A stretch of DNA of 64,000 nt. It comes from Polyangiales bacterium. Lineage in GTDB: Bacteria; Myxococcota_A; Polyangia; Polyangiales; Polyangiaceae. The notes under the pieces were generated by a model. It saw only the letters and a list, made by a program, of their open reading frames with translations. It ran no database searches and was not told the DNA's origin. The stretch covers positions 108,340-172,339 of the forward strand of contig JBBRLQ010000003.1 of assembly GCA_038231275.1 (NCBI GenBank), in the 5' to 3' direction. A program made the translations under genes and the position numbers. Position 1 is the stretch's first letter, and each line of letters starts with the position of its first letter. Below, piece after piece: positions 17,177 through 58,746 of this stretch.

Positions 17177-17206
17177 GCCGCCACTCTAGCAGCGTCTGCC
17201 GCGTGC

Positions 17207-19812: not shown

Positions 19813-20142
19813 ATGACGAACGCGCTCCAGATCGACAAGCTCAAGGAAGGCTCCGGCGCCGAGGCCCAGGCCGGCAAGCGCGTCACCGTCCACTACGTCG
19901 GGACGCTGACCAGCGGCGACAAGTTCGACAGCTCGCGCGATCGCGGCAAGGGCTTCAGCTTCAAGCTGGGCGCGGGCGAGGTCATCAAGGGATGGGACCA
20001 AGGCGTCGCCGGCATGAAGGTCGGTGAGATGCGCAAGCTGACGATCCCGTCGGATCTCGCCTACGGCGCGCGCGGATTTCCGCCGGTCATCCCGCCGAAC
20101 GCGACGCTCGTGTTCGAGGTGGAGCTTCTCGAAGTCAGCTGA
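19813..20142 (+). CDS. FKBP-type peptidyl-prolyl cis-trans isomerase
   Basis: Classic FKBP motifs are present ([48 protein letters not shown]). Confidence 0.93.
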
Positions 20143-20239
20143 GCGACGAGGCCCGCGACGGCATCGGTGCGCAACACGTTGAAAACGTGAAACTTCTTCG
20201 TGTCGCCCGTTTGGGGGAAGTGCGCGCCGGCGCGGGGCG

Positions 20240-21271: not shown

Positions 21272-21282
21272 TCTCTACGGCG

Positions 21283-41363: not shown

Positions 41364-41369
41364 CGCGCG

Positions 41370-44300
41370 ATGAAGAAAGCGGAGCCGGCGATCGTGCCGC
41401 AGGGCGGAGGCCCTCCGGCCGAGACCGAGGCGGGGGGTGACGACGACGAAACGGACGCGCCGGCCGGCCTCCCGATCGTCGAGCCAACGCACTACGCGAT
41501 CATGGGGGAGATCGCGCGTGGAGGTCAGGGCCGCGTCCTCTTGGCGCGCGATCGGCGGCTCGGTCGCGAGGTCGCCCTCAAAGAGATGCTCAAGGTCTCG
41601 TCCTCGTCGGTCGGACGTTTCGTCCGCGAGGCCATGATCACCGCGCGCCTGCAGCACCCTGGCATCGTGCCCGTCCACGAGGCGGGCCGATGGCCCACCG
41701 GCGAACCGTTCTACGCCATGAAGCGCGTCTCGGGGCGTCCGCTCGACGAGCTCGTCGCCGCGGCGAAGAGCCACGAAGAGCGCCTGGCGATGCTGCCGCA
41801 CGCGATCGCGGCCGCCGACGCGATCGCGTATGCGCACGCGTCGGCCATCCTCCATCGCGACTTGAAGCCGGCGAACATCCTGGTCGGAGAGTTCGGCGAG
41901 ACGGTGGTCGTGGACTGGGGCGTGGCCAAGCGGCTCGACGAGGACGACACGCCGCTCAGCGATCTGGATCCGCTGGCCATGCAAGGCCACACGCGCGTCG
42001 GCGCGGTCGTGGGGACGCCGGCGTACATGGCGCCCGAGCAGGCCGCGGGAGGCCCCGTCGATCGTCGCGCGGACGTGTACGCGCTCGGCGCGACGCTCTA
42101 CCACGTGCTCAGTGGAGTGCCGCCCTACGCGAGCGTGAGCTCCAGCGATCCGGCGCCCCACCTCGCGGTCCTCGACGGCCCGCCGGTTCCGCTCGCGGAG
42201 CGCGCCCCCGGAGTGCCTCACGAGCTCTGCACAATCGTCGACAAGGCGATGGCGCGCCGTGCCGAGGATCGGTACCCGAGCGCGAAGGAGCTGGCCGACG
42301 ATCTCAAGCGCTTCGCCGCCGGTCAGTTGGTCGCCGCGCATCGCTATTCGACGCGCGCGCTCGTCGGGCGTTGGCTCCGCCGTCATCGCGCCGCGGCGCT
42401 GCTCACGAGCCTCTTCGTCGTCGCGCTCGCCGCGGTCGGCACACTGAGCGTCCGGCGCGTCGTAGAGGAGCGCAACGCCGCGCGCGCGCATCAACGCGCG
42501 GCGGAAGAGGCGAACCAGAGCCTCGTCGAAGCCAACGACGCGCTCAGGCTCCAGACCGCGCGTGCCGAGCTCGATCGCGATCCGACGGCGGCCGTCGCGT
42601 GGCTGAAGACGTACCCGGCCACCGCGCCCGAGCAGCGCGCGGCCGGTGCCATCGCGCATGACGCATGGACACGGGGGGTCGCGCGCCACGTCTTCTCCCG
42701 CGACGAGCCCCTGCTCGCGGTCGCCATGTCGCCCGACGAGCGGCACCTCGCAGTCACGGGCCGCGCCAGCCTCACGCTCTACGATCTCGCCACCGGCGTC
42801 GGGCGCACGTTCGCGGCCACGGAGGGAGTGGGCGTCGATGCCGTCTTCTCGCCCGACGGAAAGACCCTGTGGACGAGCGCCGGTCACGTGCTCCTCCTCT
42901 GGAACGTCGGGACCGGAGCCTCGCGGCGCATCGACGTGGGCCGCGAGGCAGGAGTCCTGGAGCTCACGGGCGACGGTCGCTTCCTGCTTGCCCGCGACGT
43001 CCAGCATCGAACGGTGACGCTCCGCGACGTCGTGGGCGACAGGGAGGTGCCTCTGCCCGCCGAGGCCGTTACCGGCGCGTTCCTCCCGGACGGAAAGACC
43101 GTGGCGATCGCGACGGGCACAGCGCTCTTCTTCCAGCCGCTCGGCGGCGGCCCACCGGTTCGCGCCGCGACGCTCGCGTCCGCCTCCTCGCCCAAGGACG
43201 TGCGTGTCTCGGGCGATGGTCGGCTCCTCGCCGTGTCCTCCGACGTCGGGATCGACGTCTACGACGCACGCGGCGCGCTCGTCCGCCACCTTCGCGCGCC
43301 AAACTTCCAGCCCTCGATGCGCGGGCTCCTCTTGGACAAAAGCGACCGCGTCATGTCGTGCAGCCGGCTCGGGCAGGTGTGGGTCTGGAGCGTCGCGTCG
43401 GGGGAGTCGCACGTCCTCGGTGAGGCGAGCTCGCCGTGCTCGGAGATGCGCCTCGCCCCCGACGGCGTGAGCCTCGTGATGCCCGGCGTCGCGAACCAAG
43501 TTCAGGTCTGGGATCTCGTGGGCGGTGGGCTCCGGCGCCTCTTCGGTCACTCCGCGACCGTCAATCGGATCGCGATGTCGTCGAGCGGCGGATGGGTCGC
43601 GTCGGTGTCCGGTGACCAAACGGCGCGCGTCTGGCGGCTCGGCGAAGGGGACTTGCGCGTCCTTCACGGCGTCACGTCGCACTCGCGCCTGGCCGCCGAT
43701 CGCTACGTGCTCACGGCGGAAAAATCATCGCACGCGCTCGAGCGGATCGATCTCCGCACCGGCGACACCAAGACGGTGAGCGGTCCGCGTCCGCTCTCGT
43801 GGGGAACGGCGACGTGGCTCAGCCCGGACGGCGAGGTCGCCGTGTACGCCGACGACACCGAGCAAATCTGGCGGTGGGACGCTGCGAGCAACACCGCTCG
43901 ACGCTGGTTTCGGTACGTGCGCCCGGGCGCACGGCACGTCGCGCACGATCTCTCCCCGGACGGCCGCTTCTTCGTGGGCGCCTCCACCGATTTCTCCGTC
44001 GTGCTCGTCGACCTCCAGACGATGGCGCAGCGCGAGCTCGGGCGGCACGACGCCATTCCCGAGGCCGTCAAATTCTCGCCCGATGGAAAGCTGGTGGCGT
44101 CCGCGGCGCGCGATCGGCTCGTTCGGGTCTGGGACCTCGAGAAGGGAACGTCGCGTGCGTTCGCGGGCCATACGGCGTTCTTGTGGGACGTCTCGTTCTC
44201 GTCGGACCGCCGGCACGTCGCGTCGGCAGGAGCGGACTCGACGATTCGCGTGTGGGACCTCGCGAGTGGAGAATCGCAGGTCCTTCGAGGCCACACCTCC

Positions 44301-44621
44301 ACGGTCGTGTCGATCGACTACCACCCCGACGGCAAGCGGCTGGTCAGCGTTTCCGACGACGGTACCGCCCGCATTTGGGACGTCGCCACCGGCGACAACG
44401 AGATCGTGCGCCGTGAGCATGCCGTCCTCTATTACGCGGCGTACTCGGCAGACGGCCGCTACGTGTCGAGCACCGCCACCGACTCCGCCACGGCGGTGTG
44501 GGATCCCGCGGTGACGCCGGTGTTTGAGCGCGATCCGGCCGCCCTTCGACGATGGTTCGATCGCATCTCGTCGGCCACGGTCGGCGCCGATGGCCGCGTG
44601 AGCACGCCGTCTCTTCCGTGA
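41370..44621 (+). CDS. Ser/Thr protein kinase - TM helix - WD40 beta-propeller protein (1083 aa)
   Basis: Kinase motifs are present (HRDLKPANILV, DWGVAK, GTPAYMAPEQ). There is one TM helix (AAALLTSLFVVALAAVGTL). Multiple WD40 repeats follow (GHTAFLWDVSFSSDRRHVASAGADSTIRVWDL and others). It starts 6 nt after the previous stop. Confidence 0.9.
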   Translation: MKKAEPAIVPQGGGPPAETEAGGDDDETDAPAGLPIVEPTHYAIMGEIARGGQGRVLLARDRRLGREVALKEMLKVSSSSVGRFVREAMITARLQHPGIVPVHEAGRWPTGEPFYAMKRVSGRPLDELVAAAKSHEERLAMLPHAIAAADAIAYAHASAILHRDLKPANILVGEFGETVVVDWGVAKRLDEDDTPLSDLDPLAMQGHTRVGAVVGTPAYMAPEQAAGGPVDRRADVYALGATLYHVLSGVPPYASVSSSDPAPHLAVLDGPPVPLAERAPGVPHELCTIVDKAMARRAEDRYPSAKELADDLKRFAAGQLVAAHRYSTRALVGRWLRRHRAAALLTSLFVVALAAVGTLSVRRVVEERNAARAHQRAAEEANQSLVEANDALRLQTARAELDRDPTAAVAWLKTYPATAPEQRAAGAIAHDAWTRGVARHVFSRDEPLLAVAMSPDERHLAVTGRASLTLYDLATGVGRTFAATEGVGVDAVFSPDGKTLWTSAGHVLLLWNVGTGASRRIDVGREAGVLELTGDGRFLLARDVQHRTVTLRDVVGDREVPLPAEAVTGAFLPDGKTVAIATGTALFFQPLGGGPPVRAATLASASSPKDVRVSGDGRLLAVSSDVGIDVYDARGALVRHLRAPNFQPSMRGLLLDKSDRVMSCSRLGQVWVWSVASGESHVLGEASSPCSEMRLAPDGVSLVMPGVANQVQVWDLVGGGLRRLFGHSATVNRIAMSSSGGWVASVSGDQTARVWRLGEGDLRVLHGVTSHSRLAADRYVLTAEKSSHALERIDLRTGDTKTVSGPRPLSWGTATWLSPDGEVAVYADDTEQIWRWDAASNTARRWFRYVRPGARHVAHDLSPDGRFFVGASTDFSVVLVDLQTMAQRELGRHDAIPEAVKFSPDGKLVASAARDRLVRVWDLEKGTSRAFAGHTAFLWDVSFSSDRRHVASAGADSTIRVWDLASGESQVLRGHTSTVVSIDYHPDGKRLVSVSDDGTARIWDVATGDNEIVRREHAVLYYAAYSADGRYVSSTATDSATAVWDPAVTPVFERDPAALRRWFDRISSATVGADGRVSTPSLP

Positions 44622-44678
44622 CGCGGCTGGCGAGCACGCTCGCATCGATCGCAGGCGGATGTTCTTCGACGCTACGCA

Positions 44679-46028
<1,350 letters not shown>

Positions 46029-46078
46029 TCATCAGGCCGATCGTCCGGCCGATTGCCAGCCCGATCACCCGCTAGCCG

Positions 46079-47005
46079 CTACGGTGAGTCCGCGCAGCAG
46101 CGGACGCCTTGCTGGTAGAATACATGCATCTCGCCGTGCGCCCGAGTCGACGGTCGGCAGCGCGTGCGGACCGGTCCCCAGTACCCTCCCTTGAGGATGC
46201 TCGGCCTGCCCCCTTGCGAGCTTCGGGTCCACTCGTCCACGTTGCCGGTCATGTCATAGACGCCGAACACGCTCTTGCACGCCGGGCGCGCGCCGCTCGC
46301 CTCGCCCTGCCACAGCTTGTCGAGCTCGCGCATCATCGGCTGGCCGTCGCGCTGCGCGAAGGCCACTGGGTTGTAAGGCTTCCACGTCGCGTCGATGACG
46401 CAAGAGGTCGTGTCGCGCGTGTAGCCGTCGCCGTACGGGTAGGGCCGCGCCTCTTCGCCTTCGCAGGCGAAGGTCCACTCGTTCTCCGTGCACAGGCGCT
46501 TGCTCACCGACTTGCAGAGATCGCCGGCCTCCACCCAGTTGATGAGAATGAGCGGGTATTCCCCCTTCTTGTTGGGAAACTCGTAGCGATCGATGCAGTA
46601 GTGCATGTCGCGCGTCGGGAAATTTTTCGACGCGGCGAGCCACTTGTCGCGATCGAACGTGGCGCAGCGCTCCGGGAAGTCGCGGCTGATCCATTTCGAG
46701 CAGACGACCTTTTGCTGCTCGTCCATCAGGTTCGCGATCTTCATCTTGCCGCGGACTTCAATCATCCCGGCCGCGCACGCGCCGCGGTTGCCTTCGGCGG
46801 CATCGGTGACCGCGCTGTCCTCGCCGGGCGGCGAGACGATCTGCCAGTGCTTGCCGAGGACGTAGCGCCAGTCGAAGCGCGGCGGCGCGAGCTTCGCGGC
46901 CGCAGCGGAGTGACCTCCGGTCGACCACGCGAGCGCGCCGAGACCCACCGCGAAGGCGATCAGCGCTCCGCCACGCCGTCCGACGAGAACAGAAAGGTCC
47001 ACCAT
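46079..47005 (-). CDS. formylglycine-generating enzyme (SUMF1/EgtB/PvdO) family protein, membrane-anchored
   Basis: It has an N-terminal TM anchor. FGE-sulfatase-type motifs are present (YCIDRYEFPN, RLCTENEWTFACEG, GVYDMTGNVDEWT, KGGYWG). Confidence 0.85.
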   Translation of the reverse strand: MVDLSVLVGRRGGALIAFAVGLGALAWSTGGHSAAAAKLAPPRFDWRYVLGKHWQIVSPPGEDSAVTDAAEGNRGACAAGMIEVRGKMKIANLMDEQQKVVCSKWISRDFPERCATFDRDKWLAASKNFPTRDMHYCIDRYEFPNKKGEYPLILINWVEAGDLCKSVSKRLCTENEWTFACEGEEARPYPYGDGYTRDTTSCVIDATWKPYNPVAFAQRDGQPMMRELDKLWQGEASGARPACKSVFGVYDMTGNVDEWTRSSQGGRPSILKGGYWGPVRTRCRPSTRAHGEMHVFYQQGVRCCADSP

Positions 47006-47106
47006 CCTACGATACGGTCCACGCTAGGACGTCCTCCCCACGGTTTCCAGGGGCGGCGGTCGCGCCTGCCCTCCCACCCGTTAGAATCCGAGAAAGCGCA
47101 GCGATT

Positions 47107-47712
47107 TCACGTCGCCGCCGCGATGAACGCGGTCAAGAGAGAGAGTCGCGCCTCGTCGGCCTTCGGATCGTCGGACACGAACCGGTGCATGCTCTCGCCG
47201 TCGAAGACCGCGAGGATCGTCTCGACGAGGAGGCCGAAGCGATCGCCGAGGCGCGCGGCGACGTCGGGGAGCAGCTGCCGCGCGAGCGCTTCGATGCGCA
47301 CGTAGTACGCCTTCGCGGCGGGCTCGAGCGCGCGCCGGAGCTTCTCGTGCGTGCGCGCGGCGACGGCGAGCTCGTACCAGGCCTGGTTCGCGCGCGAGCG
47401 ACAGTGCGAGCGCACGAGGCGCAGCGCGAGGAGGAGCGAGTCCTCCGAGCCGCGCGATTCGTCGAACTCGCCGCGGTAGCTCTCGAGCGTCTGGCGCCCG
47501 ATGTCCTCGCCGACCGCGACCATCAGCGCTTCACGCGTGGGAAAGTGCCGGAAGAGGGCTCCTTGCGAGACCCCTGCGCGAAGGCAGATGGTCTGGACGC
47601 TCGCGTCAGCGTAGCCCACGTCGATGAGCGTGGCGGCGGCGGCGTCGAGGAGTTTGCGGATCGTCGAGGTGCGACGCTCCTCTTGGGTCCGTCGCGTCGG
47701 TGCCGCCGTCAC
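47107..47712 (-). CDS. TetR-family transcriptional regulator
   Basis: TetR HTH is present (TICLRAGVSQGALFRHFPTREAL). The GTG start overlaps the stop of the upstream amidohydrolase (GTGA at 47709-47712). The rest of track ORF 47107-48228 is an out-of-gene extension. Confidence 0.85.
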   Translation of the reverse strand: MTAAPTRRTQEERRTSTIRKLLDAAAATLIDVGYADASVQTICLRAGVSQGALFRHFPTREALMVAVGEDIGRQTLESYRGEFDESRGSEDSLLLALRLVRSHCRSRANQAWYELAVAARTHEKLRRALEPAAKAYYVRIEALARQLLPDVAARLGDRFGLLVETILAVFDGESMHRFVSDDPKADEARLSLLTAFIAAAT

Positions 47713-49529
47713 GCCGCCTCCGCGTCCGCGGTCTTGTTCGTTGCCTTCGTCGTGGCGTCGAGCACGCCGGCGGCGGACTTCACTCCCGCCGCGAGGAACT
47801 GGCCGTACGCGCGCTCCTTGCCGAGCCCGTCCGCGAACGCGCCTCCTTCGAACGCGACGTTCCCGTTCACGAGCACCGCCTGCACGGCCCCGTCGCTGCG
47901 GTTCACCATGCGCATGAGATCGCCGAACCCCTCCATCGGCGCCTCGTGGTACGCGTCGAGGCGCGCGTCGAGGGCCTCCGGATCGATCACGACGAGATCC
48001 GCGCGATCGCCGACGCGGAGCCGACCGGCGTCGACGCCGAGCCACGCGCCGAGCTCCCCGGTCAGGCGATGCACCGCGCGCTCGAGCGGCATGATGGGCG
48101 TGCCGGCGCGCTCGGCGTCGCGAACGGCGCGGAGCATTCGCAACGGCGCGCTGTAAAACGCCATGTTCCGGATGTGCGCGCCGGAGTCGGCGAATCCGAT
48201 GAGCGCGCACGGTTGGCTCATCATCCACGCGATCTCCTTCGGCCGATGGTTCGCGATGAGCGTGTGCCAGCGCACCTTCTTCCCGTATTTCACGACGAGA
48301 TCGAGGAACAGATCCGCCGCGTGAATTTCGCGCTCTTTGGCGATGTCGCCGAACGATCGTCCCACCAGCGCAGCGTCGGGGCAGGCGTCGATATGCGCGT
48401 CGAAGAAATCACGGTGCCAGACGCGCGGCGTGAACTTCTTCTCGTAGTCGCGTCGGAACCACCGCCGGTACGACTCCTCCTTCATGAGCGCGTTGCGTTC
48501 GACCTCGCCCGCGAGGTGAAGTGCCGCGCGCCCGGAGCCGAACTCTTCGAACACCACGAGATCGATCCCGTCGGCGTAGATGTGGAACGGCACTGGCAGC
48601 GTCTGCCAGCGAACGTCGCTCCCGAAGAGGCGGTTGAACGTGCGCGTGACGTACGCGATGACGCGGTGCAGTCCCGGCGTGGCCTTGCCGTCGGCGAGCG
48701 TGAGCAGCGTCGTCTTGAGGGACTTTCGCGCGAAGAAGCTGGCGCTCGCCATCACGAAGAGGAGAAAGTTCAGCACGGTGACGAGGTTCGGCGCCGACTG
48801 CAGGATGCGCCCCCGCGCGCGCAGCATTTTGTTGAGCCGCCGGTACTCGCCCCAGGTCGCGTACGTCGAGGGGAGCTGGGCGGAGCGGTAGCGATCGCCG
48901 TCGAGCTTGTCCCAGGGGTTGGTCATCGTCGACAGGCCGAGCATTCCGTGGTCGAGCGCCTCGCCGAGCCAGCGCTCCATCTCCACGAGCTCGCTCTCGC
49001 TCGGTCGCGCGTCCGAGTCGACGGCGCGTCCGAGCCCCATCACGCGCGCGCGAAGATCCGAGTGGCCGAGGAACGCGGTGACGTTCGCACCGAGCGGCAG
49101 ACCCCGAAGGAACGAGACATACTCGCCGGGCGTGGCCCACGTCTTCTTCGCGCGGAGGAGCGGGAGGACCTGCGCGCGCGGCACCGCCTCGACGCGCGTG
49201 AACAGATCCGAGCAGTCTTCGGCGTCGGCCAGGACGGTGCTGATCGAGCAGCTCCCGATCGTCACGGTCGTCACGCCGTGGCGAATGGACTCGGAGAGCG
49301 ACGGCGCCGCGAGGATCTCCGCGTCGTAGTGCGTGTGGCAATCGACGAAGCCCGGGGTGATCCACTTGCCGGTCGCGTCGATGACCTTCGCGCCGTCGGT
49401 CTCGAGCGGCGCCGGGCTAATGGACACCACGCGGCCGCCTTTGATGCCGAGGTTCCGAACGGAGCCTGGCGCGCCGGTGCCGTCGAAGAAGAGGCCGCCC
49501 ACCAAAACGACGTCGTACCGCATCACCAA
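47709..49529 (-). CDS. N-acyl-D-amino-acid deacylase (D-aminoacylase) family amidohydrolase
   Basis: The family-typical N-terminus reads YDVVLVGGLFFDGTG...KWITPGFVDCHTHYD (HxH metal site). It is about 600 aa. The start may be 49523. Confidence 0.88.
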   Translation of the reverse strand: MVMRYDVVLVGGLFFDGTGAPGSVRNLGIKGGRVVSISPAPLETDGAKVIDATGKWITPGFVDCHTHYDAEILAAPSLSESIRHGVTTVTIGSCSISTVLADAEDCSDLFTRVEAVPRAQVLPLLRAKKTWATPGEYVSFLRGLPLGANVTAFLGHSDLRARVMGLGRAVDSDARPSESELVEMERWLGEALDHGMLGLSTMTNPWDKLDGDRYRSAQLPSTYATWGEYRRLNKMLRARGRILQSAPNLVTVLNFLLFVMASASFFARKSLKTTLLTLADGKATPGLHRVIAYVTRTFNRLFGSDVRWQTLPVPFHIYADGIDLVVFEEFGSGRAALHLAGEVERNALMKEESYRRWFRRDYEKKFTPRVWHRDFFDAHIDACPDAALVGRSFGDIAKEREIHAADLFLDLVVKYGKKVRWHTLIANHRPKEIAWMMSQPCALIGFADSGAHIRNMAFYSAPLRMLRAVRDAERAGTPIMPLERAVHRLTGELGAWLGVDAGRLRVGDRADLVVIDPEALDARLDAYHEAPMEGFGDLMRMVNRSDGAVQAVLVNGNVAFEGGAFADGLGKERAYGQFLAAGVKSAAGVLDATTKATNKTADAEAA

Positions 49530-49625
49530 TGTCTTACATAGAAAGAGAGTAATCGCAATCTATGTTGGATAAATGATTCGCAACTATCGGAAAGAGGACG
49601 CTTTATCCCAGGACCCCGGCGTCCC

Positions 49626-50753
49626 TTACGGCGCGCACGCGGCGACGAACGGTTTGATCGTCCCGTCGGCGAGCAAGCGATTGCACGCCTTGGGGCAGAG
49701 GTGAACGCGATCGTTCGTCGGCGCCGGGTACCACTCGTCCGCCGCCGTGCACGCGGCCGCGTTCGCGACGCCCGCGGTCGGGAGCTGCGCGCTGCTGGTC
49801 TCCAAGTAGAGGAGGCCCTTCGTGAGGTCGGCGGGTTTGCCCCCCACGAGCGGCAACCGCACGAGGCACGCGAGCTCGTCGCGGATCGACACGAGCGCGG
49901 CGAGCATGCTCGCAGGCGTCGGCGGGACCTGCGCGAACGCCGCGTCCGTACCGCCGACCTGGGCGATCGGGTTCATGAACTGGATGACGTCGCTGGGCAT
50001 CTCGGTGATGCCGACGAAGAACGTCCGGATGGGCGGCGTGCCTTGCGCGTACGGGGCGACGATCGACTCGATCTCCGCCGCGGTCATGAGGCACGCCGTC
50101 GGCGTCGAGTCGGCAATGAAGACGAACGCCGTCTCGCGCGCCGGCGCGGCTACCTTGGCGGCCTTCGTCGCCTGGAGCGCGCCCGTGATCATCGCGGACC
50201 ACGGCGACTGCCCCAGCGGCCCGAGCGGGGCCAGGAACGTGGTGATCGCCGCGCCGGTGCCGCCGCCGAGCCTCCCCATGGGCACGGGGGGCGTCGCGAA
50301 GGGGCCCGAGGTGCAGCCGGCTTCGGCGCCCTGGTCGGGGTGAGTACCCGCCATCGCGTAGACGCCGGCGGACAGCGGATCGGCGACGAACGAATCGACG
50401 GCGCCCCGCTCCACCTGGTACCGCGTGCCCGCTTCCGGTAGCGGCTGCATCATGCTCCCCGACGTGTCGACGGCCAGGTAAATCTGCGCCTCGAGCAACG
50501 TCGCGGGGAACGCGCCGATGACGCACCCCGGCGGCGCATCGAACGGCGGCGTCACCACGTCCGAGACGACACCACCGTCGTTCGAGGTGGCGCCATCCGG
50601 AGGAAGGCTCCCGTCCGGAGTCGTGCCATCGAGCTCTGTCCCGGCGTCGTCGAATGTTCCCAGCGTGCGATCGCCGAGGCTCGCGATGATCGCGCACGAC
50701 ACGGTCGAGAGCGCCGCGAGGCCCGACGCCCAGAAGAGGAGAGGACCTCGCAT
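49626..50753 (-). CDS. secreted vWA-domain protein
   Basis: It has a signal peptide (MRGPLLFWASGLAALSTVSCA) and a MIDAS motif (LAVDTSGSM). The start ATG shares one base with the upstream stop (TGATG). Confidence 0.7.
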   Translation of the reverse strand: MRGPLLFWASGLAALSTVSCAIIASLGDRTLGTFDDAGTELDGTTPDGSLPPDGATSNDGGVVSDVVTPPFDAPPGCVIGAFPATLLEAQIYLAVDTSGSMMQPLPEAGTRYQVERGAVDSFVADPLSAGVYAMAGTHPDQGAEAGCTSGPFATPPVPMGRLGGGTGAAITTFLAPLGPLGQSPWSAMITGALQATKAAKVAAPARETAFVFIADSTPTACLMTAAEIESIVAPYAQGTPPIRTFFVGITEMPSDVIQFMNPIAQVGGTDAAFAQVPPTPASMLAALVSIRDELACLVRLPLVGGKPADLTKGLLYLETSSAQLPTAGVANAAACTAADEWYPAPTNDRVHLCPKACNRLLADGTIKPFVAACAP

Positions 50754-51781
50754 CAGAACCCTCCCGCGAGGACGACGCCGCCGAGCGTCGGCGCGGCGCG
50801 CAGAGCGGTTGTGCTCTTTTTCGCGCCGAACGAGGTGATGACGAAGAACGCGCCCGCGCCGAGCGCGGCGGCGCCGATGGCGAACGCGACCGTCGAGATC
50901 GTCGCCGACGTGTGCGCCTTGTCGTTCAAGCGGACTCCTTCGGCATCGCAGAACGTGCCCACGCAGTGCGGATCGCGCGCGTCGCGCTGCTTGAAGGTGT
51001 CGATGCCGAAGTACGCGCCGAGGCCGATGGCGACGATCCCGACGCCGCCGAGCGCGTAGCCGGTGGGGCGCTGCCACGCGGCGGGCTTGGTGGTGAACGG
51101 CTCGAGTTTTGGCGGCGGAGTCGGACCGGGAGGCGTCGCGGCGCCCGGAACGGGCGGCACGACACCGGGCACAGCGGGATGCTCTTCGGGCAGCTCCGCT
51201 TTGAACGTCTGCGTTCCCGGCTGCGGCGCGACCTTCCACGTCACCGTGTGCGCGGCCTGGCCCGGCGCGGAGGTCTCGACGACGTGATCGCCCGGCTCGA
51301 TCGGCCGCGCCTTGGCGAGATCCGCCGCCGCGAGCGATGCGCCGTCGACCTTGAGCACGTACCCCGCGGGGAGCGCCGACACGTCGTACGACGCGCGCGT
51401 GATCTGAGGCTCGAGGCGCGCGAGCGCGTCGCTCGCGAATTTGAGGCGCTCGCGGTCGTCCTTGGTCTTCGCCTTCGCCATGAGCTCGACGAGCTGCTCG
51501 TACTCGCGTGCGGCGGTAGCGACCTTGCGATCCTTCTCGTGGCAGGCCGCGAGGTTGAGGAGCGCACCCGGCGCGGGATCGAGCGTGTAGCTCTCCCCGA
51601 ACTTCGCGCACGCCTCGGTCACGCTGCCCGCCTGCATCAGCGCCTGCGCCGCGCGGAACAGCGCATCGGCGCGCGCGACCTCCTCCTTCGTCGGATCGGC
51701 GAGCGCGGGCGAGGCGACGCACATCGCGACGCACGCCGCGGCGACGGCGCCGCGAAGGGAACGGCCCGCGCGTGTGCTCAC
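50753..51781 (-). CDS. exported TPR-like / beta-sandwich protein with two C-terminal TM helices
   Basis: It has a signal peptide (…AAACVAMCVASPALA). A helical TPR-like segment is followed by a PEGA-like segment (GYVLKVDG...GDHVVE). TM helices are present (GYALGGVGIVAIGLGAYFGI, ISTVAFAIGAAALGAGAFFVI). The GTG start overlaps the kinase stop (GTGA at 51778-51781). Confidence 0.6.
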   Translation of the reverse strand: MSTRAGRSLRGAVAAACVAMCVASPALADPTKEEVARADALFRAAQALMQAGSVTEACAKFGESYTLDPAPGALLNLAACHEKDRKVATAAREYEQLVELMAKAKTKDDRERLKFASDALARLEPQITRASYDVSALPAGYVLKVDGASLAAADLAKARPIEPGDHVVETSAPGQAAHTVTWKVAPQPGTQTFKAELPEEHPAVPGVVPPVPGAATPPGPTPPPKLEPFTTKPAAWQRPTGYALGGVGIVAIGLGAYFGIDTFKQRDARDPHCVGTFCDAEGVRLNDKAHTSATISTVAFAIGAAALGAGAFFVITSFGAKKSTTALRAAPTLGGVVLAGGF

Positions 51782-53205
51782 CGGCGCTTGTCCAAAATCG
51801 AGGTGCCCGGCGGCGGTGGCGTCACCGGAGGACGCGCGGTGGCCGTCGGCTTGGTCCGCGGCGGCGGATCGTCCTTCGCGGCGACCGCAGAACCGGTCGC
51901 GGTCGCCGGCGGAGTCGCGGTGTCGGTCGGCGTCGGAATCGGAGTCGGAGTCGGAGTCGGAGTCGGAGTCGGAGTCGGAGTCGGAGTCGCCGTCGGCGTC
52001 GCGGCCGCGTGCGAGGCCGCGCGGCGCGGGCCGATCACGGCGAGCGTGCCGACGACGAGCACGCCGAGCACCACCGCGGCGGCCGCGAGGATCGCGACGA
52101 TCCCCGCGCGGCTCGGTCCCGTCTCCGGCGGCGCCGCCCACGCGCGTTGTGCGCTCGCCGACTGCGCCATTCCGGTCGTCATCGGCGGGCGAGGCGGCGG
52201 CGCGCTGAGGTTTTGCGGGATCGGCGTGCTCGGCAACGACGGCTCGACCGGCTGCGGCGCCGCCGCCGCGCGGGCAGCCGCGAGCGGCGCGAGGTTGGCG
52301 CTCATCCTCTCCAGATCCCGCCTCACGTCCCGCGTCCCGAACGGCGCCAGCGCGTAGGCGAGCTCCGCGACGTTCTGGAAGCGCGCGTCGCGATCGCGCG
52401 CGAGGCAGCGCCCGACGATCTGATCGATCGCCGGCGGCACGTCCGGGCGGCGCTCACGAAGCGGCACCAGCGGCTGCTCCAAAATCGCGACGAAGAGCTC
52501 GCCCAGCGTCTCCCCCGAGAAAGGCGTCGCGCCGCTGAGGAGCTCGTACAAGATGACGCCCATCGCCCAGATGTCGGCGCGCGTGTCCACCGTGCGCGAG
52601 CTCCGGAACTGCTCCGGCGAGATGTAGAGCGGCGAGCCGAGGAGCGCGCGCGTCGAGGTCTGCGCCATGTCCGGCGACGTGTCGATCGACGATTTGGAGA
52701 TGCCGAAGTCGAGGACCTTGAGGACCTCGGACCCATCCGGCCACTTCGCGATGAACAGGTTCGACGGTTTTAGATCGCGGTGCACGATGTGGAGCGCGTG
52801 CGCCGCCGAGAGCGCCTCGAGGGCTTGGATGGCGTAGTCGACGGCGAGCGGCACCGGGAGCGGTCCGTCTTTCCGGAGGACGCGCCCGAGATCGCGTCCG
52901 TCGAGGAGCTCCATGAGGATGAACGGCACGCCGGTGTCGAGCGTCCCGACGTCCATCACCTTGGCGACGTGCTCGCTCTTGATGCGCGCGCACGCCCGCG
53001 CCTCGTGGAGGAAGCGGCGCGTCGTGTCCTCGTTCATCACCTCGGGCAAGAGGAGCTTCAGCGCGACCGGCTGCTCGAGCAGCTCGTGACGCGCCGCGAA
53101 GACGACGCCCATTCCGCCGCGACCCACCAACCGCTCGACGCGGTAGCGGCCGCCGAGCACCAGCTCCCCCGCGCGGGGGAGGAGGGCGGCGGACGCGTCG
53201 GACAT
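51778..53205 (-). CDS. Ser/Thr protein kinase with TM helix and extracytoplasmic (Thr-Pro)n tail
   Basis: Kinase motifs are present (GRGGMGVVF, HRDLKPSNLF, DFGISK, GSPLYISPEQ). There is one TM helix (AGIVAILAAAAVVLGVLVVGTLAVIG), then TPTPTPTPTPTPTPTPIPTPT. Confidence 0.9.
   Translation of the reverse strand: MSDASAALLPRAGELVLGGRYRVERLVGRGGMGVVFAARHELLEQPVALKLLLPEVMNEDTTRRFLHEARACARIKSEHVAKVMDVGTLDTGVPFILMELLDGRDLGRVLRKDGPLPVPLAVDYAIQALEALSAAHALHIVHRDLKPSNLFIAKWPDGSEVLKVLDFGISKSSIDTSPDMAQTSTRALLGSPLYISPEQFRSSRTVDTRADIWAMGVILYELLSGATPFSGETLGELFVAILEQPLVPLRERRPDVPPAIDQIVGRCLARDRDARFQNVAELAYALAPFGTRDVRRDLERMSANLAPLAAARAAAAPQPVEPSLPSTPIPQNLSAPPPRPPMTTGMAQSASAQRAWAAPPETGPSRAGIVAILAAAAVVLGVLVVGTLAVIGPRRAASHAAATPTATPTPTPTPTPTPTPTPIPTPTDTATPPATATGSAVAAKDDPPPRTKPTATARPPVTPPPPGTSILDKRR
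51941..51988. repeat. hexanucleotide microsatellite (GGAGTC)x8, coding for (Thr-Pro)n on the minus strand
   Basis: Eight perfect tandem copies read directly from the sequence. Degenerate copies flank them (GGAATC at 51935-51940, GCCGTC/GGCGTC after). Confidence 0.95.
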
Positions 53206-53400
53206 GGCGTTAGGCTACTTTGTGCGCTGCGGAATCGCCAATCGAGAGTGCCTCCCGCCGGGCATCCATGCATTCGGTCGGGCGTTTGGCGCGCCGGGGG
53301 AACCTTCGGCCTATCCGATTGTCATGTCGCGCAATTGGGCAGATCCTTCTCGTTTGCGGCGCGTATCACGCGCACGAATCGCCATCCCTAGGGGGACCTC

Positions 53401-56400
53401 ATGACCGACTCCGCGACCGTTCCCGAACCGCGCGTGTTCCGCCTCTCTCGCCGCATGCTGATCCTCGGGGTCGCGGCGCTCGCCGGCGTCCTCGGGATCG
53501 TGGTGTGGCTCGTCACGCGAACGCCTGCCCCCGCGCGCGCGCGCAGCATCGGCGCGCGTCTCGAGCTCGCGGCCGGCGACGTCGCGGTCTCCGAGAACAA
53601 GGCGAGCAGCAAAGCCCTCAGCGGCACGCCGCTCGCGATCGGCTCCCACATCGCCACGGGCAAGGGCTCACGCGCCCTCGTGCGCACCGGTGATGGCGCC
53701 GCCGTGTTCCTGCGCGGCGAGACGGAGATCGTGCTCGACGACAAAGGGCTCACCATCGAGTCCGGCGAGGTGTGGCTCGACGCGCCCAAGGTCGACAATG
53801 ACGCGATCGAGGTCGCGCTCGGCAAGCACACGCTCAGCGCGAGCGACTCGGGTCTCTCGATCACGCGCAAGGGCGATGAGGTCACGGTCTACGTCGCGCG
53901 CGGGCTCTCCATCCTCACGTCGCCGGGCGGGCGCGTCGAGATCAACCAAGGCGAGCAAGGCATCATCCACGCGACCGAGGCGCCCAAGGTCTCGGCCGTG
54001 AAGTTCTGGCAGGACTGGACCGGCGGCATGGGCGACTCGCACGCGTCGCACGGCGCGATGGGCAGCGGCTCGGGGCGAATCTATGGCCTCGATCCGGGCG
54101 CCCCGCCCGGCGCGCCCGCGAAGAAGCTCGGCATCGCGCAGCAGAGCGTTCGCGCCGTGGTGCGCGACGGCATCGCCGAGACCGAGGTCGATCAGACGTT
54201 CTCGAACCCCGGCAGCCAGTCGATCGAGGGCTGGTACTGGTTCACGATCCCGCCGCAAGCGATCGTCACGAGCTTCGCGCTCGAGACCGACGGGCACCTC
54301 GTCGAGGGTGAGGTCATCGAGCGCCGCGAGGCGGCCGCGCGCTACCAGGCGGCGGTCACGCAGGCGAAGGATCCGGCGCTCCTCGAGTGGGTCGACGGCC
54401 GCACCTACCGCGCGCGCATCTTCCCGATCCCGCAGAGCGGCACGCGCCGCGTCGTGCTCCGTTACATGGAGACGCTCCCGCGCGTCGACGGCAAGGTTCG
54501 CTACGTCTACCCGATGCGCTCGGACGATCCGCCGCGCTTCGACGAGTTCGCGCTCTCCGTGGATCTCGGCGACATCGGTCCCAAGGTGCAGGTGTCGACG
54601 TCGCTCGACGCGCGCGTGGAGTCGGGCGGGCGCCTCGTGTCGATGCGCCGCAGCGGCTACGTGCCGCGCGCCGATTTCCAGCTCGAGATGGGGGCCGACA
54701 AGAAGGCGCCCGCCGTGCGCGCGTGGCGCTTCGAGGCGGGGACCGACAAGGCCGACTACGTGATGATGCGCTACGTCCCCGAGGTCGATTTCGCGGCGCT
54801 CCCGCCGGCGAAGGGTGAGCTCGTCGTCGTGGTCGACACGTCGGCCGGCGGTGACGAGGCGGCGCGCGCGCTTCGCATGTCGGCGGCGGAGGCGATCCTC
54901 CGCGCGCTCTCCGACGACGATCGCTTCGCCTTGGTGGCGCTCGACGTCGCGCCCACCGTCGTCTACCCGAAGGACGGCCTCGCGCAGGCGACCGACGGCG
55001 ACATCTCCAAGGCCCTCGAGAAGCTCTCCGATCACGCTGTCGGTGGCGCGACGGATCTCGGCGCGATGTTCGAGCCCGCGCTCGAGCGCCTTCACAACAC
55101 CGAGCAGCCCGCCGTCGTGTATGTCGGCGACGGCGCGGCGACGAGCGGCGAGACGAGCTCCGACGCCCTCCTCGAGCGCTTGCGCCGCTCGCTCACCGGA
55201 ACGCGCGCGCGCCTCTTCGCGGTCGGCGTCGGCGCGGATGCGCGTCACGATCTCCTCGGCCAGCTCACACGCGCCGGCGGCGGGCAGTACCTCCGCATCG
55301 ACGAAGGGGACCAGACGACGGGGCAAGCGCTCCGCCTCACGAGCGCGATCAAGACGCCGACGATCACCGATCTCGACATCGATATCGGCGCCGGTCTCGA
55401 TCAGCCCTTTTACTCGGCGACCGGCAAGCTCACGCGCGGCGAGGAGCTGCTCCTGCTCGCGCGCACGCACCACCCGCTCCCGCAGAAGGTGAAGGTCAAG
55501 GGGCGCGTCGGCGGGAAGCCCTTCGACGAGGAGTACCCGCTCACCGTCGAGTCCGGCGTGACGACGTCGCTCGTTCCGCGCCTGTGGGCTGCAGAATACA
55601 CGCGTCGCCTCCTCGGCAGCGGCGGCGCGTCGGAGGACAACCGCGGCAAGGTGCTGGACCTCGGGGTCGAGTACGGCCTCATGACGCCGTACACGAGCAT
55701 CCTCGCGCTCGACAGCGAGAGCGCGTATGCGCGCCAGGGGATCCCGCGCCGCAAGACGAAGCTCCGCGGCGAGCGACTCACTGCGATCACGAGTCCCGAG
55801 AAGGAGCACGAGCTCGCGGCCCTCTACGCGCCGACCTTTCCGATGACGGCGATGGGCTGCGACAAGCGCTCCGCCTCGGCGTCGCACGCCGACGACATGG
55901 AGCAACAAGGTGGCACCGGTGCGCGCGCGAAGGGCGAGGAGGGATCGATGGGAAATCCGTCGCCGCCGACCGCGCAGGTCGCCGCCGTGCCCCAAGCGGG
56001 TCCGAGGGAGGCGACGTTCGCTGACGGCGATCGAAAGGAAGATTCGATTCCGTCGGCGCCCGGGAGCCCGCCCCCGTCGGATCCGAACGGGAACCTGAAG
56101 CTCTCGGCCGGAGGCTCTCCGATCGCCGCCGGAAACAACGGAGCCGGCCTCACGGGGATCGGCGGCGGCGGCGGCGGCGCCAACAAGCCCGTGGCGACCC
56201 CGCCCGCGCCGCGGCGAACCGGTCCGGCCGGCGCGAAGACGGCGCCGAAGGCCGTCATGAAAGATGGGCGTGACCTCATCGAGGAAAAGCAGCTCGCGCT
56301 CGACGCCGACCGGACCCGCGCCAACGCCCTCTCCGCGCTTCGCCCCGCGTGGCCTGCGATCCCGCGCGCGTCTCTCTCGCGATGCAGCGACGCCGCCGCG

Positions 56401-57651
56401 CGCCCGCTCGCCGAGCGCATCGTGTTGTGGCAAAAGCGCGCAAAAAAGGCGCAAAACGCCTACGAGCTCGTCTCGCAGTACGAGATGGCGCGCGCGTCGT
56501 GCGAGCTCCCCGACTGGCGCGATCAGGCGGCGCTCCTCGACTTGCTCCAGCAGCGCGTCGACACCGAAGGCGGCGCCGAGTACGTGCTCGGCCACTTCGC
56601 CGGTGAGACCGACGCGCAGCGTTTCGTGGCGCGCTCGATCTTGCGCCGCACCGTGGACCTCCACCTCGCCGCCGCCGTCGGGCGCGTGCTCTTCGGCAGC
56701 AACGTCGACTGGCAGAAGGTCGACCGCGATCTCCTCGACACCGACAAGGCCGACGCACGCCTCGGAAAGCTCAAGGTCGCGATGGCCGTGGCGCCCGGCG
56801 ATCCGTCGGGCGACGTTCGTTACGTGCGCCTCCTCGCGCAGCTCGATCAGAAGCAGGAGGCGATCGCGTACGGACGACGCCTCCGTGATCGCGGCTTCTT
56901 GACGCCGACCCTCGCGCAGCAGCTCGGCGACGTGCTCTCGTCGGCCGGCGAGAAGGACGAGGCGCTCCGCACCTACTCGGAGATCGTCGAGTTCGACGGC
57001 GGAAATCCCGCGTCGCGCCGCGTCCTCGGGGACATCTTCCTGCGCCAGGGGTGGTACGCGGCGGCGTACCGCCAATACAAGACGCTGACCGATCTCGATC
57101 CGAAGGGACAGCTGCCGCGCCTTCGCTTGGCGGCTGCGGCGGCCGGCGCGGGACGCACCGACGAGGCGCTCCGCATCGAGCGCGACGTTGCGACCGGCGA
57201 AGGAAACCCTGGACCGAACGATCCGCGCTACTGGGCGCGTCTCTGGTCGGCCGCGCGCATCGGCGCGCTCATGAGCGAGCAAGGCGCCCCCGCCGCGAGC
57301 AAGGACGCGCTCGCACGCAAGCTCAAGGAGCTCCAATTGTTCAGCGGCCCCGGCGCGTTGTCGCTCGTGTCGTGGGAAGACCTCGACGTCGCGGCGTCGC
57401 TGGTGAACGCCGACGAGAAGAAGGACACGCTCCCCGGCGAGGTCACCGACGCGACGCCCACCGGGCTCTACGCGCTGCTCGTGCGCCCCGAGGTCTTCGC
57501 GAAGACCAACTGGGCGGTGCGCTGGAAGAGCGAGCCGCTCGGCCGCGCGCTTGCGTACAAAGTCACGACGCTGTCGTGGGACGGCCGCGACTTCAAGGTG
57601 GCGATCAAGTCCGGCGAGCTGAAGCCGGGCGATCGTCAGATCGCACTGTAA
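53401..57651 (+). CDS. giant (1416 aa) TM-anchored FecR-like + VIT + vWA + TPR protein
   Basis: It has an N-terminal TM helix (MLILGVAALAGVLGIVVWLV). A FecR-like beta-rich sensor segment follows. The VIT-like segment reads WYWFTIPPQAIVTSFALETDGHLVEGEV...KDPALLEW...ARIFPIP. The vWA domain begins LVVVVDTSAGG. The C-terminal ~500 aa are TPR/helical. Confidence 0.88.
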   Translation: MTDSATVPEPRVFRLSRRMLILGVAALAGVLGIVVWLVTRTPAPARARSIGARLELAAGDVAVSENKASSKALSGTPLAIGSHIATGKGSRALVRTGDGAAVFLRGETEIVLDDKGLTIESGEVWLDAPKVDNDAIEVALGKHTLSASDSGLSITRKGDEVTVYVARGLSILTSPGGRVEINQGEQGIIHATEAPKVSAVKFWQDWTGGMGDSHASHGAMGSGSGRIYGLDPGAPPGAPAKKLGIAQQSVRAVVRDGIAETEVDQTFSNPGSQSIEGWYWFTIPPQAIVTSFALETDGHLVEGEVIERREAAARYQAAVTQAKDPALLEWVDGRTYRARIFPIPQSGTRRVVLRYMETLPRVDGKVRYVYPMRSDDPPRFDEFALSVDLGDIGPKVQVSTSLDARVESGGRLVSMRRSGYVPRADFQLEMGADKKAPAVRAWRFEAGTDKADYVMMRYVPEVDFAALPPAKGELVVVVDTSAGGDEAARALRMSAAEAILRALSDDDRFALVALDVAPTVVYPKDGLAQATDGDISKALEKLSDHAVGGATDLGAMFEPALERLHNTEQPAVVYVGDGAATSGETSSDALLERLRRSLTGTRARLFAVGVGADARHDLLGQLTRAGGGQYLRIDEGDQTTGQALRLTSAIKTPTITDLDIDIGAGLDQPFYSATGKLTRGEELLLLARTHHPLPQKVKVKGRVGGKPFDEEYPLTVESGVTTSLVPRLWAAEYTRRLLGSGGASEDNRGKVLDLGVEYGLMTPYTSILALDSESAYARQGIPRRKTKLRGERLTAITSPEKEHELAALYAPTFPMTAMGCDKRSASASHADDMEQQGGTGARAKGEEGSMGNPSPPTAQVAAVPQAGPREATFADGDRKEDSIPSAPGSPPPSDPNGNLKLSAGGSPIAAGNNGAGLTGIGGGGGGANKPVATPPAPRRTGPAGAKTAPKAVMKDGRDLIEEKQLALDADRTRANALSALRPAWPAIPRASLSRCSDAAARPLAERIVLWQKRAKKAQNAYELVSQYEMARASCELPDWRDQAALLDLLQQRVDTEGGAEYVLGHFAGETDAQRFVARSILRRTVDLHLAAAVGRVLFGSNVDWQKVDRDLLDTDKADARLGKLKVAMAVAPGDPSGDVRYVRLLAQLDQKQEAIAYGRRLRDRGFLTPTLAQQLGDVLSSAGEKDEALRTYSEIVEFDGGNPASRRVLGDIFLRQGWYAAAYRQYKTLTDLDPKGQLPRLRLAAAAAGAGRTDEALRIERDVATGEGNPGPNDPRYWARLWSAARIGALMSEQGAPAASKDALARKLKELQLFSGPGALSLVSWEDLDVAASLVNADEKKDTLPGEVTDATPTGLYALLVRPEVFAKTNWAVRWKSEPLGRALAYKVTTLSWDGRDFKVAIKSGELKPGDRQIAL

Positions 57652-57657: not shown

Positions 57658-58746
57658 CTATCCGGGCGCGTCCGGATCGAGCTGGATGGCGACGAGCTCC
57701 GGCGAGGAGCTCGCGATGCTGGCCTTTGGGACGTACGCGTAGCCGTCGTCTCCCCAGCCCTTGCCCCACGAGTTCTTCACGACGAAGAAGTTGCCGATGA
57801 ATCCGACGCACAGCATCGCGTGGTATTCGCGGTGCGGCCAAGCGGCGCGCGGCATGTGGTAGACGCCGTCGCGTCCGATCGCGGTGAACGCATCGCCGGT
57901 GTACATCGAGAGGTTGATCGCCCATCCGGTGCGGAGCGCGTCCTTCGCGTCGTCCACGTGGATGACGAAGACCTTCGCGTCGAGGAGGTGCTTCTCCGCG
58001 TCGGCGGCCATCTCCTCCAACGTGGCCTTGGGGTGCGGATCGTCGTTGGCCCAGAGCGACGCGCGGCAGGTGCCGTGCTTGACGAGCAGCTCGCCGGGTT
58101 GCCACGTCCCCGAGACGCCGTCGCCGCCGAGGTACGCGCGCCGGTAGTCGGTGTGCTCGCCCTGGCGTTTCAGGAACTGGAGCATCGTGAAGCTGCACGC
58201 GAGGTGCGGGAACGGAGTCCCGAGCACATTGCCCGCGAGCTCGATGGCGTGGGTCCACGCGAACGCGTCGCAGCGCAGCGTCTGGCCTTGGTCGCCGACC
58301 GGGGAGCAGTGGCGTCGCATGTCGATCCGCGGCGCGCCGCTCCCGCGCCGGAGCGACGCCGGGACCGCGCCCTTTGCCGGAGCAGGCGCGTGCGTGCGCG
58401 TCCGCTTCGCTTGCGTGAGGTGGACGTCGTCGAAGCGCACGCGCGGCATCGCAGCCCGCACGCGCGTCAGCTCCTCCGCCGAGTCGACCGCGAGCACGCC
58501 GCGCGCCACGATCGCCTCATCGCGCCGATAGAAGCGAAGCCCGCTCGCGCCCCGCGCATGACGCGCAGTCTCCGCGGCGAGCGCCGCATCGAGGCCCGCG
58601 TCTTCGAGAGCGCGGTCACCCTCGTGGAGCGCCCGCGTGTGCGCGGTGTCCCCGAAATGCGGGTGCGCGCCGAAGAGATCCTGCGCCGAGCGCGCGTAGT
58701 CGTCCGCGCTCCAGTCGCCCTCGTCATCCTCCAAATCCGGCGTCAT
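57658..58746 (-). CDS. papain-like (C1 family) cysteine peptidase with ~150-aa N-terminal extension and no signal peptide
   Basis: Catalytic-site contexts are present. GDQGQTLRCDAFAW corresponds to QG.CGSCWAF. HAMLCVGF corresponds to HAV..VGY. VKNSWGKGWGDDGYAYV corresponds to KNSWG..WG..GY. Confidence 0.8.
   Translation of the reverse strand: MTPDLEDDEGDWSADDYARSAQDLFGAHPHFGDTAHTRALHEGDRALEDAGLDAALAAETARHARGASGLRFYRRDEAIVARGVLAVDSAEELTRVRAAMPRVRFDDVHLTQAKRTRTHAPAPAKGAVPASLRRGSGAPRIDMRRHCSPVGDQGQTLRCDAFAWTHAIELAGNVLGTPFPHLACSFTMLQFLKRQGEHTDYRRAYLGGDGVSGTWQPGELLVKHGTCRASLWANDDPHPKATLEEMAADAEKHLLDAKVFVIHVDDAKDALRTGWAINLSMYTGDAFTAIGRDGVYHMPRAAWPHREYHAMLCVGFIGNFFVVKNSWGKGWGDDGYAYVPKASIASSSPELVAIQLDPDAPG

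Follow-up and report, generated by a model that had tools for sequence, protein, structure and literature searches.

A candidate kinase-adaptor-lipoprotein signalling cassette in the envelope of Polyangia and its FecR-VIT-vWA-TPR neighbour

A 64,000-nucleotide stretch of DNA from a Polyangiales bacterium (contig JBBRLQ010000003.1; hereafter, the window) contains three overlapping minus-strand genes that encode a membrane Hanks-type Ser/Thr kinase (designated K), an exported protein (designated T) that we consider an adaptor, and a predicted lipoprotein with a divergent von Willebrand factor A (vWA) domain (designated V). On the opposite strand, across 195 nt, lies the gene for a giant protein (designated G) that combines FecR-like, VIT, vWA, and tetratricopeptide repeat (TPR) regions. 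The original prediction grouped all four genes into one divergent cluster. We lean instead towards a reading in which G is an independent neighbour and K-T-V represents a copy of an envelope signalling cassette that is modular and specific to Polyangia. The elements of the locus are as follows:

51778–53205, minus strand: K, membrane Hanks-type Ser/Thr kinase, 475 amino acids (aa), supported by a Pkinase match, catalytic motifs, and reading frame
50753–51781, minus strand: T, exported putative adaptor, 342 aa
49626–50753, minus strand: V, predicted lipoprotein with a divergent vWA domain, 375 aa
53401–57651, plus strand: G, FecR-VIT-vWA-TPR protein, 1416 aa, a neighbour outside the putative cassette
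53206–53400, no strand assigned: intergenic region between K and G, 195 nt
41364–53400, no strand assigned: 12-kb block missing from the colinear relative L004, delineated by blastn colinearity

The GC content of the window is approximately 70%, and the frame profile of GC at third codon positions (GC3) supports three successive genes on the minus strand and the giant gene on the plus strand. At the junction between K and T (51778–51781; cgGTGAgc), the TGA stop codon of K, which ends in AAG CGC CGG TGA, overlaps the GTG start codon of T by 4 nt. At the junction between T and V (position 50753; cTGATGc), the stop codon of T and the start codon of V share a single A, such that the end of T reads GGG TTC TGATG. 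Both overlaps had been described in the original prediction, and identical 4-nt and 1-nt overlaps recur in the orthologous contigs L002 and L003. The public gene call for V corresponds to the same 375-aa protein, and the starts of K and T are backed by orthologous gene calls with matching overlaps and by N-terminal conservation. Indeed, the order of the three genes and their overlaps are kept in every metagenomic relative that could be read; the genes downstream of the operon vary.

Pairs of K and T are also found beyond the close relatives of the window. In Labilithrix luteola, a kinase that shares 45% identity with K is followed by a T homolog that is 33% identical and has the same architecture. 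A census of the T family was carried out by a pattern scan of species-representative genomes with a 10-sequence subset of the T alignment, the full alignment (A2) being too diverse, and yielded at least 572 matches that were confirmed by tblastn. The best 80 of these at least 572 matches form the basis for all counts of T loci given here. The 80 loci reside in Polyangia (Sorangium, Minicystis, Chondromyces, Labilithrix, Byssovorax, and metagenome-assembled genomes (MAGs) of Polyangiaceae) or in unclassified Myxococcota-type MAGs, and several genomes hold more than one copy of T. Of the 80 loci, 53 encode a kinase domain directly upstream of T in the same orientation, compared to approximately 3% expected from the background density of kinases; it is divergent in 4 further loci and just downstream in 6. 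Alignment of the module kinases reveals a common layout comprising the kinase domain, a transmembrane (TM) helix, and a Pro-rich tail.

The start of the gene that follows T is usually no more than a few nucleotides from the T stop codon, and the products of this gene belong to many unrelated families with Pfam matches to DUF4397, HYDIN/ASH Ig-like, RCC1, RTX, Lcl_C, GDSL, Exo_endo_phos, and others. When a profile of V and a broader profile of the V superfamily were run against the genes in third position at other T loci, none of these genes was V-like. The partners resemble one another at their N termini, which contain a signal peptide, a lipobox Cys, a short tag, and then a low-complexity tether. 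The tag occupies approximately 10–14 residues, at positions +2 to +10 right after the lipidated Cys, and conforms to the consensus [GA]-C-[QAN]-x-[ILV]-[VAIL]-G-[IL]-[ED]-[DE]-x-E-x-x-P with the core C-x-x-[ILV]-[VAIL]-G-[IL]-[ED]-[DE]. Neither T nor the post-lipobox tag is covered by any Pfam, NCBIfam, or PADLOC model. A strict version of the tag pattern was searched in 1462 high-GC3 open reading frames (ORFs); 28 of the 1462 matched, and 28/28 are located beside a K/T module in a co-directional, convergent, or upstream position. Among lipobox-like candidates, tagged ORFs were found in modules in 32/32 cases, compared to 99 near and 161 far from modules for untagged ORFs (Fisher p = 6.8e-13). 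Sorangium carries arrays, each behind a single T gene, of three to four paralogs of a tagged lipoprotein (GCNAxIGLEVGELDP; L007, 8201–14286; L065, 11082–17400). The largest family of T-linked tagged lipoproteins is represented by L035 (11011–12072) and 13 related loci and shows a weak NCBIfam match to "signal integration modulator SinM" (NF037948; 30.8 bits, with the cutoff at 250).

The three elements by which we would recognise a module are present in the window: a T gene, a membrane Hanks kinase, and a lipoprotein with a tag, albeit a diverged one. The V tag (SCAIIASLGDR) matches the sequence logo of the module-wide tag at positions +4, +5, +7, +9, and +10, and members of the V clade contain Ser or Asn at +6 and Gly at +8. 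This tag is near-invariant among V orthologs, and the tether that adjoins it is hypervariable. Among 157 proteins of the V superfamily that were retrieved, the tag is found only in the clade of V orthologs; thus, a vWA lipoprotein was apparently recruited into a K-T module through acquisition of the tag.

K is a Hanks-type kinase with the following features:

52375–53145, minus strand: kinase domain, aa 21–277 (Pkinase)
52030–52107, minus strand: single TM helix, aa 367–392 (sequence)
51925–51999, minus strand: (TP)n repeat within the extracytoplasmic Pro/Thr-rich tail, aa 403–427 (sequence)
51781–51819, minus strand: C-terminal PPPPGTSILDKRR, conserved in close orthologs (ortholog alignment)

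The match to Pkinase (PF00069) scores 147 bits, compared to a gathering cutoff of 31.7, and the catalytic motifs VALK (aa 47–50), HRDLKPSN (aa 142–149), and DFG (aa 166–168) are intact. These features, together with the TM helix and the (TP)n tail, bear out the membrane Ser/Thr kinase described in the original prediction. The extracytoplasmic tail comprises 83 residues that are rich in Pro, Thr, and Ala, and K has no folded sensor domain. A role for K in anti-phage defence was considered and rejected, because PADLOC gave generic kinase-domain matches only (PD-T4-6, Mad6, and PglW). T, V, and G had zero PADLOC matches.

T was modelled with AlphaFold2 (AF2), and the model was confident, with a predicted local distance difference test (pLDDT) score of 83. 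It contains the following domains:

51404–51688, minus strand: five-helix TPR domain with the conserved motif LLNLAxCxEK, aa 32–126 (AF2 model)
51200–51400, minus strand: beta-sandwich, aa 128–194 (AF2 model)
50831–51073, minus strand: membrane helical hairpin capped by a conserved HCxxxxCD loop, aa 237–317 (AF2 model)

The signal peptide of T ends with ALA, followed by DP, and this, along with the model, agrees with the earlier description of an exported TPR/beta-sandwich protein with two TM helices. The hairpin consists of two long helices (aa 237–272 and 280–317) and is separated from the beta-sandwich by a Pro-rich linker or stalk of approximately 40 residues. T scores 26.8 bits against Pfam TPR_2, just under the cutoff of 27, and the fold is that of a TPR helical repeat. 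The TPR domain is the most conserved portion of T in the family alignment, and it resembles the peptide-binding TPR domains of Hop (TPR1), PP5, Rap, and LpoP. The beta-sandwich lacks a PEGA match in the Pfam scan; one homolog was named "PEGA domain-containing protein" by its source. The C-terminal tail forms a short hairpin in the model, with Phe as the last residue. A C terminus of Gly-x-Phe or Gly-x-Trp after a short beta-hairpin (50756–50830 in the window) is present in 29 of the 32 T-family proteins in alignment A2 and recalls the beta-signal of outer-membrane proteins or a PDZ ligand. In the V clade, T carries Ala or Tyr where most T proteins carry a conserved Trp (the "ASAW" column of alignment A2, T aa ~88–92). 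The difference at this column may be correlated with the changes at +6 and +8 of the V tag, judging from a single lineage.

The third product, V, is organised as follows:

N-terminal part of 49626–50753, minus strand: lipobox Cys20, then the tag and a D/G/T/P-rich tether of ~55 aa (ortholog alignment)
50658–50696, minus strand: tag C20-AIIASLGDRTLG, a diverged copy of the module-wide tag (ortholog alignment)
49866–50489, minus strand: divergent vWA domain, aa 89–296 (fold and intermediate sequences)
[quoted passage not shown]
50196–50207 and 50106–50120, minus strand: further likely MIDAS positions S183 (in SPWS) and D215 (in FIADS), both invariant
aa 297–375, minus strand: Cys-rich C-terminal domain

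V has no direct sequence match in Pfam (the VWA model included), NCBIfam, or the PDB. The vWA assignment comes from its fold and from homology through intermediate sequences: a profile of the 9-member V family finds 2498 cluster representatives, the more distant of which pass the Pfam VWA model, and the structural neighbours nearest to the vWA core are ITIH4 and ITIH1, two inter-alpha-trypsin inhibitor heavy chains (ITIHs). D96, S98, and S100 are conserved in 8 of the 8 sequences that cover them, and the invariant S183 probably takes the place of the MIDAS Thr. V had been described in the original prediction as a secreted vWA protein with an intact DTSGS motif. The vWA domain and the conserved DxSxS motif stand, but the export assignment has to be revised: V is predicted to be a lipoprotein instead of a protein secreted in soluble form, because Cys20 is conserved after a hydrophobic stretch and lines up with the Cys of the canonical lipobox in other tagged partners, even though its own lipobox is atypical ([ST]-[VAST]-S-C). 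Only 9 close homologs of V were found. Scans of species-representative genomes and metagenome contigs with the V alignment returned pattern matches, none of which was confirmed, and the orthologous K-T-V locus is therefore not among the species-representative genomes. Elsewhere, L079 (2538–3857, minus strand) encodes an untagged vWA lipoprotein of the V superfamily (E = 1e-108 with the broad V profile) that is divergent to a module comprising K, T, and a tagged lipoprotein; weaker V-like matches occur in L052 and L017.

How might such a cassette operate? Its proposed parts are a sensor-less membrane Hanks kinase with a disordered, Pro-rich periplasmic tail, a dedicated adaptor, and an interchangeable lipoprotein. 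T would expose its TPR domain and beta-sandwich in the periplasm on the Pro-rich stalk and be anchored by the hairpin, whose small CxxxxC knob would emerge on the opposite side of the membrane. We propose that the tag docks onto the periplasmic TPR/beta-sandwich region of T and thereby connects the "sensor head" of the lipoprotein with the T-K pair, because K lacks a sensor, the TPR domain of T is of the peptide-binding type and is its most conserved portion, and the tag is the sole feature common to the partners. The membrane hairpin and far-side knob of T would contact K. The variable domain of the lipoprotein would provide ligand specificity, which in the window would reside in a MIDAS-bearing vWA domain; metal-dependent binding of a ligand by this domain would alter the T-K interaction and the output of the cytoplasmic kinase. 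Given that V contains a MIDAS vWA domain, its ligand would most likely be an acidic protein residue or a polyanionic component of the envelope or matrix. The broader form of the model, in which tagged lipoproteins of many folds act as plug-and-play receptors that dock on T and, through it, are linked across the inner membrane to Hanks kinases devoid of a sensor, is put forward tentatively and has somewhat less than half of our confidence.

Several observations weigh against this model. The tag of V is diverged, with Ser at +6 and Gly at +8 replacing Gly and Glu, and the control set in the comparison of lipobox-like candidates includes false ORFs. Approximately 17 of the 80 T loci have no kinase in reach, which indicates that T and its lipoprotein may operate without K. 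Docking of the tag on T is argued from co-occurrence and parallel conservation only, and the CxxxxC loop of T may lie on either side of the membrane. Finally, the structure model of V has a low overall pLDDT (50), and the core alone is usable.

Some of the same evidence could be accommodated by a scheme in which the tag acts as a signal for sorting or retention and T is the dedicated handler of tagged lipoproteins (a chaperone, an anchor, or a surface-exposure factor), such that the kinase merely controls their traffic and the cassette displays or deploys a variable set of adhesins and enzymes instead of sensing ligands. The tag occupies precisely positions +2 to +10 relative to the lipidated Cys, and Bacteroidota would offer a parallel in the lipoprotein export signal that follows their lipidated Cys. 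The existence of T-lipoprotein pairs with no kinase nearby, the Sorangium arrays behind one T, the aromatic residue that ends T in nearly all of the family, and the presence of enzymatic and adhesin-like domains among the partners (GDSL, Exo_endo_phos, RTX, Ig-like, and vWA) all fit this scheme. We nevertheless regard it as unlikely, since approximately 79% of T genes lie beside a kinase of matching membrane architecture and T contains no recognisable transporter, barrel, or ATPase element.

Less probable still is that K, T, and V are merely co-transcribed and form no complex, for example with T and V serving as substrates or cargo that have no part in kinase sensing or with the tag representing a lineage-specific leader that spread by recombination at 5' ends of genes. 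In favour of this reading, the module kinases form at least two similarity classes. However, the tag is confined to modules across unrelated families and in both gene orientations, the translational coupling is conserved, and the V tag is under purifying selection beside a hypervariable tether.

The relationship of G to the cassette was addressed from both sides. The genomic contexts of five G orthologs (L004, L005, L006, L091, and L092) were examined and represent five distinct neighbourhoods, none of which contains K-T-V beside G (0/5). Conversely, a G homolog was found within 10 kb of T in 0 of the 80 T-family loci from reference genomes, and in L003, the closest of the K-T-V contigs that extend upstream, the kinase is not preceded by G. 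The nearest ortholog of G (76% identity) resides in L004, which is colinear with the window on either side of the K-T-V genes. By blastn, positions 250–4206 of L004 correspond to 37434–41360 of the window, which encodes a STAND-type kinase, and positions 4352–8536 correspond to 53465–57640, which encodes G. This STAND-type kinase (Pkinase-AAA_16-TPR_12; 1311 aa; 37428–41363, plus strand) has a 67%-identical ortholog that directly precedes G in L004. The two genes are 78 nt apart there, compared to a 12,040-nt block (41364–53400) that separates them in the window. According to Pfam, the eight genes of the block encode a Pkinase-WD40 protein, an FHA-sigma54 activator, an FGE-sulfatase-domain protein, a TetR regulator, an amidohydrolase, V, T, and K. 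The difference appears to reflect a lineage-specific indel or rearrangement; both insertion in the window and deletion in L004 are compatible with the alignment.

The intergenic region between K and G was also scanned. No sigma-70-like sites were found in 53206–53400, a scan that is uninformative for this phylum, and no shared regulatory element was detectable there. Local alignment with the region upstream of G in L004 gave a score of 22, compared to 17 ± 2 (maximum 24) for shuffled sequences; the score is not significant, and we therefore claim no conserved leader. Two observations qualify the separation of G from K-T-V. A JGI contig that carries P0005 (JGI 3300047160) has an unreadable 45-aa fragment of a divergent gene upstream of the kinase, and in that one lineage linkage to G is possible. 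In L. luteola (L006; CP012333), a cultured strain that lends itself to experiments, a paralogous module at 17039–22113 that comprises a kinase, a T homolog, a tagged RCC1 lipoprotein (LACNAIVGVQE), and a 413-aa gene is convergent with the G ortholog and situated 6 kb downstream of it.

The idea that K, T, V, and G form one divergent envelope apparatus, in which both vWA proteins capture ligand and signal through the kinase, draws on the adjacency of K and G across 195 nt, on the export of both V and G and their common possession of a vWA domain, and on the proximity of module and G in L. luteola, but we consider it very improbable in view of the 0/5 and 0/80 contexts, L003, the placement of G straight after the STAND kinase in L004, the disparity between at least 912 homologs of G and 9 close homologs of V, and the lack of a shared regulatory motif. 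The complex suggested between the two vWA proteins has no support either. The original prediction proposed conservation in related genomes as the check on its cluster and named absent linkage as grounds for abandoning it; for G, linkage is not conserved. Its notion of an envelope signalling apparatus survives for the kinase-based K-T-V unit, which is conserved and coupled, and fails in the inclusion of G.

As the second part of the reading favoured here, G appears to be a separately conserved, stand-alone, membrane-anchored periplasmic protein of Polyangia that adjoins K only by way of local rearrangement. Its family comprises at least 912 matches, with 58–76% identity over the full length, which their sources name as Polyangiaceae, Labilithrix, and Myxococcales. 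The regions of G, all encoded on the plus strand, are as follows:

aa 19–38, plus strand: TM helix (sequence)
53650–53904, plus strand: FecR-like domain, aa 84–168 (Pfam)
54139–54465, plus strand: VIT domain, aa 247–355 (Pfam)
54817–55290, plus strand: vWA domain, aa 473–630 (Pfam), with DTSAG at 54835–54849
aa 801–1000, plus strand: variable low-complexity linker (conservation profile)
~aa 1001–1350, plus strand: conserved helical/TPR region (Pfam TPR at ~1171–1260 only)

FecR (PF04773) scores 24.0 bits, equal to the cutoff, with full-length G and 29 bits when the region is searched as a fragment. The VIT domain (87 bits) is followed by VWA_3 (41.5 bits), an order that mirrors that of ITIHs, as had been pointed out in the original prediction. 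The MIDAS of G is not intact; DTSAG is found in 88 of 120 homologs and DTSAS in 23 of 120. The FecR-like, VIT, and vWA assignments made earlier are thus in agreement with ours, but the "about 500 aa of TPR" could not be confirmed, as Pfam TPR covers only ~aa 1171–1260 and aa 801–1000 form a linker. Two candidate identities for G were rejected. As a FecR-type anti-sigma factor, G would need a cytoplasmic anti-sigma domain and a partner ECF sigma gene, but just 18 residues lie before the TM helix, and no sigma-factor gene is present among the neighbours that were scanned; as a marine sortase target of the TIGR03788 type, it scores 157 bits against a curated cutoff of 551.65.

Other genes surround the locus. 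Within the 12-kb block, a 1083-aa Pkinase-WD40 propeller protein is followed directly by a 449-aa protein with FHA, sigma54-activator, and HTH_8 domains (41370–46028, plus strand). Downstream of V (46079–49529, minus strand) are genes for an FGE-sulfatase-domain protein, a TetR regulator, and a 606-aa amidohydrolase, none of which is kept beside K-T-V in relatives. A partial match to the papain family (Peptidase_C1) at 57658–58746 (minus strand) is convergent with G, and the two stop codons are 6 nt apart.

Polyangia such as Sorangium encode hundreds of eukaryote-like kinases, many without a recognisable sensor domain, and the inputs to these kinases are mostly not known. If the proposal is true, tag-recruited lipoproteins would provide a testable route to input specificity for part of this large myxobacterial kinome, and the tag would serve as a simple sequence handle for finding sensor heads genome-wide. 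The ITIH-like G protein, as an independent and highly conserved envelope protein of Polyangia, merits separate study. Our survey of literature on kinase/TPR/lipoprotein modules, SinM, and Mkap proteins found nothing relevant; as far as we could find, no paper deals with the module, and a receptor system of Polyangia built from a kinase, an adaptor, and a tagged lipoprotein has apparently not been described before.

The closest individual counterpart of V is CglB, a vWA outer-membrane lipoprotein adhesin of ~400 aa that functions in gliding motility of Myxococcus xanthus and has a lipobox Cys at position 20, a MIDAS, and many cysteines (PMC9946355). Compared by this published description, V is similar in its Cys20, a predicted lipobox Cys, its MIDAS vWA domain, its many cysteines, and its myxobacterial origin. 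In contrast, CglB works with the Glt machinery rather than with a kinase operon, the tag is not reported for CglB, and the jellyroll described at the N terminus of CglB has no counterpart in V (PMC9946355). With regard to G, the succession of VIT and vWA is common to ITIHs and to bacterial VIT-vWA proteins such as TIGR03788; unlike these, G also contains a TM helix and a FecR-like domain at the N terminus and a TPR region at the C terminus, and DTSAG replaces DxSxS. V differs from ITIHs in that it has no VIT domain.

At the level of the whole cassette, two groups of known systems invite comparison. The TerY-P triad and archaeal ArnA/ArnB with the ArnC/D kinases comprise cytoplasmic vWA proteins with a Hanks-type kinase, a PP2C phosphatase, and/or an FHA partner. 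They resemble K-T-V in the genetic linkage of a vWA protein to a Hanks-type kinase; TerY-P and ArnB-type models were rejected for this locus because the operon includes neither a PP2C nor an FHA gene and its vWA protein, V, is exported. In the RcsF-IgaA-RcsCDB, NlpE-CpxA, LpqB-MtrB, and CseA-CseC systems, sensor kinases depend on lipoproteins or adaptors as accessory components. In such lipoprotein-assisted systems, a sensing lipoprotein is coupled, sometimes via an intermediate membrane protein, to a membrane kinase that lacks an adequate sensor of its own, an arrangement like the one proposed here. The putative Polyangia cassette differs from these systems in that it uses a Hanks Ser/Thr kinase rather than a histidine kinase, together with an adaptor family restricted to Polyangia; its lipoprotein would be interchangeable and marked by a tag, and the module is present in several copies per genome.

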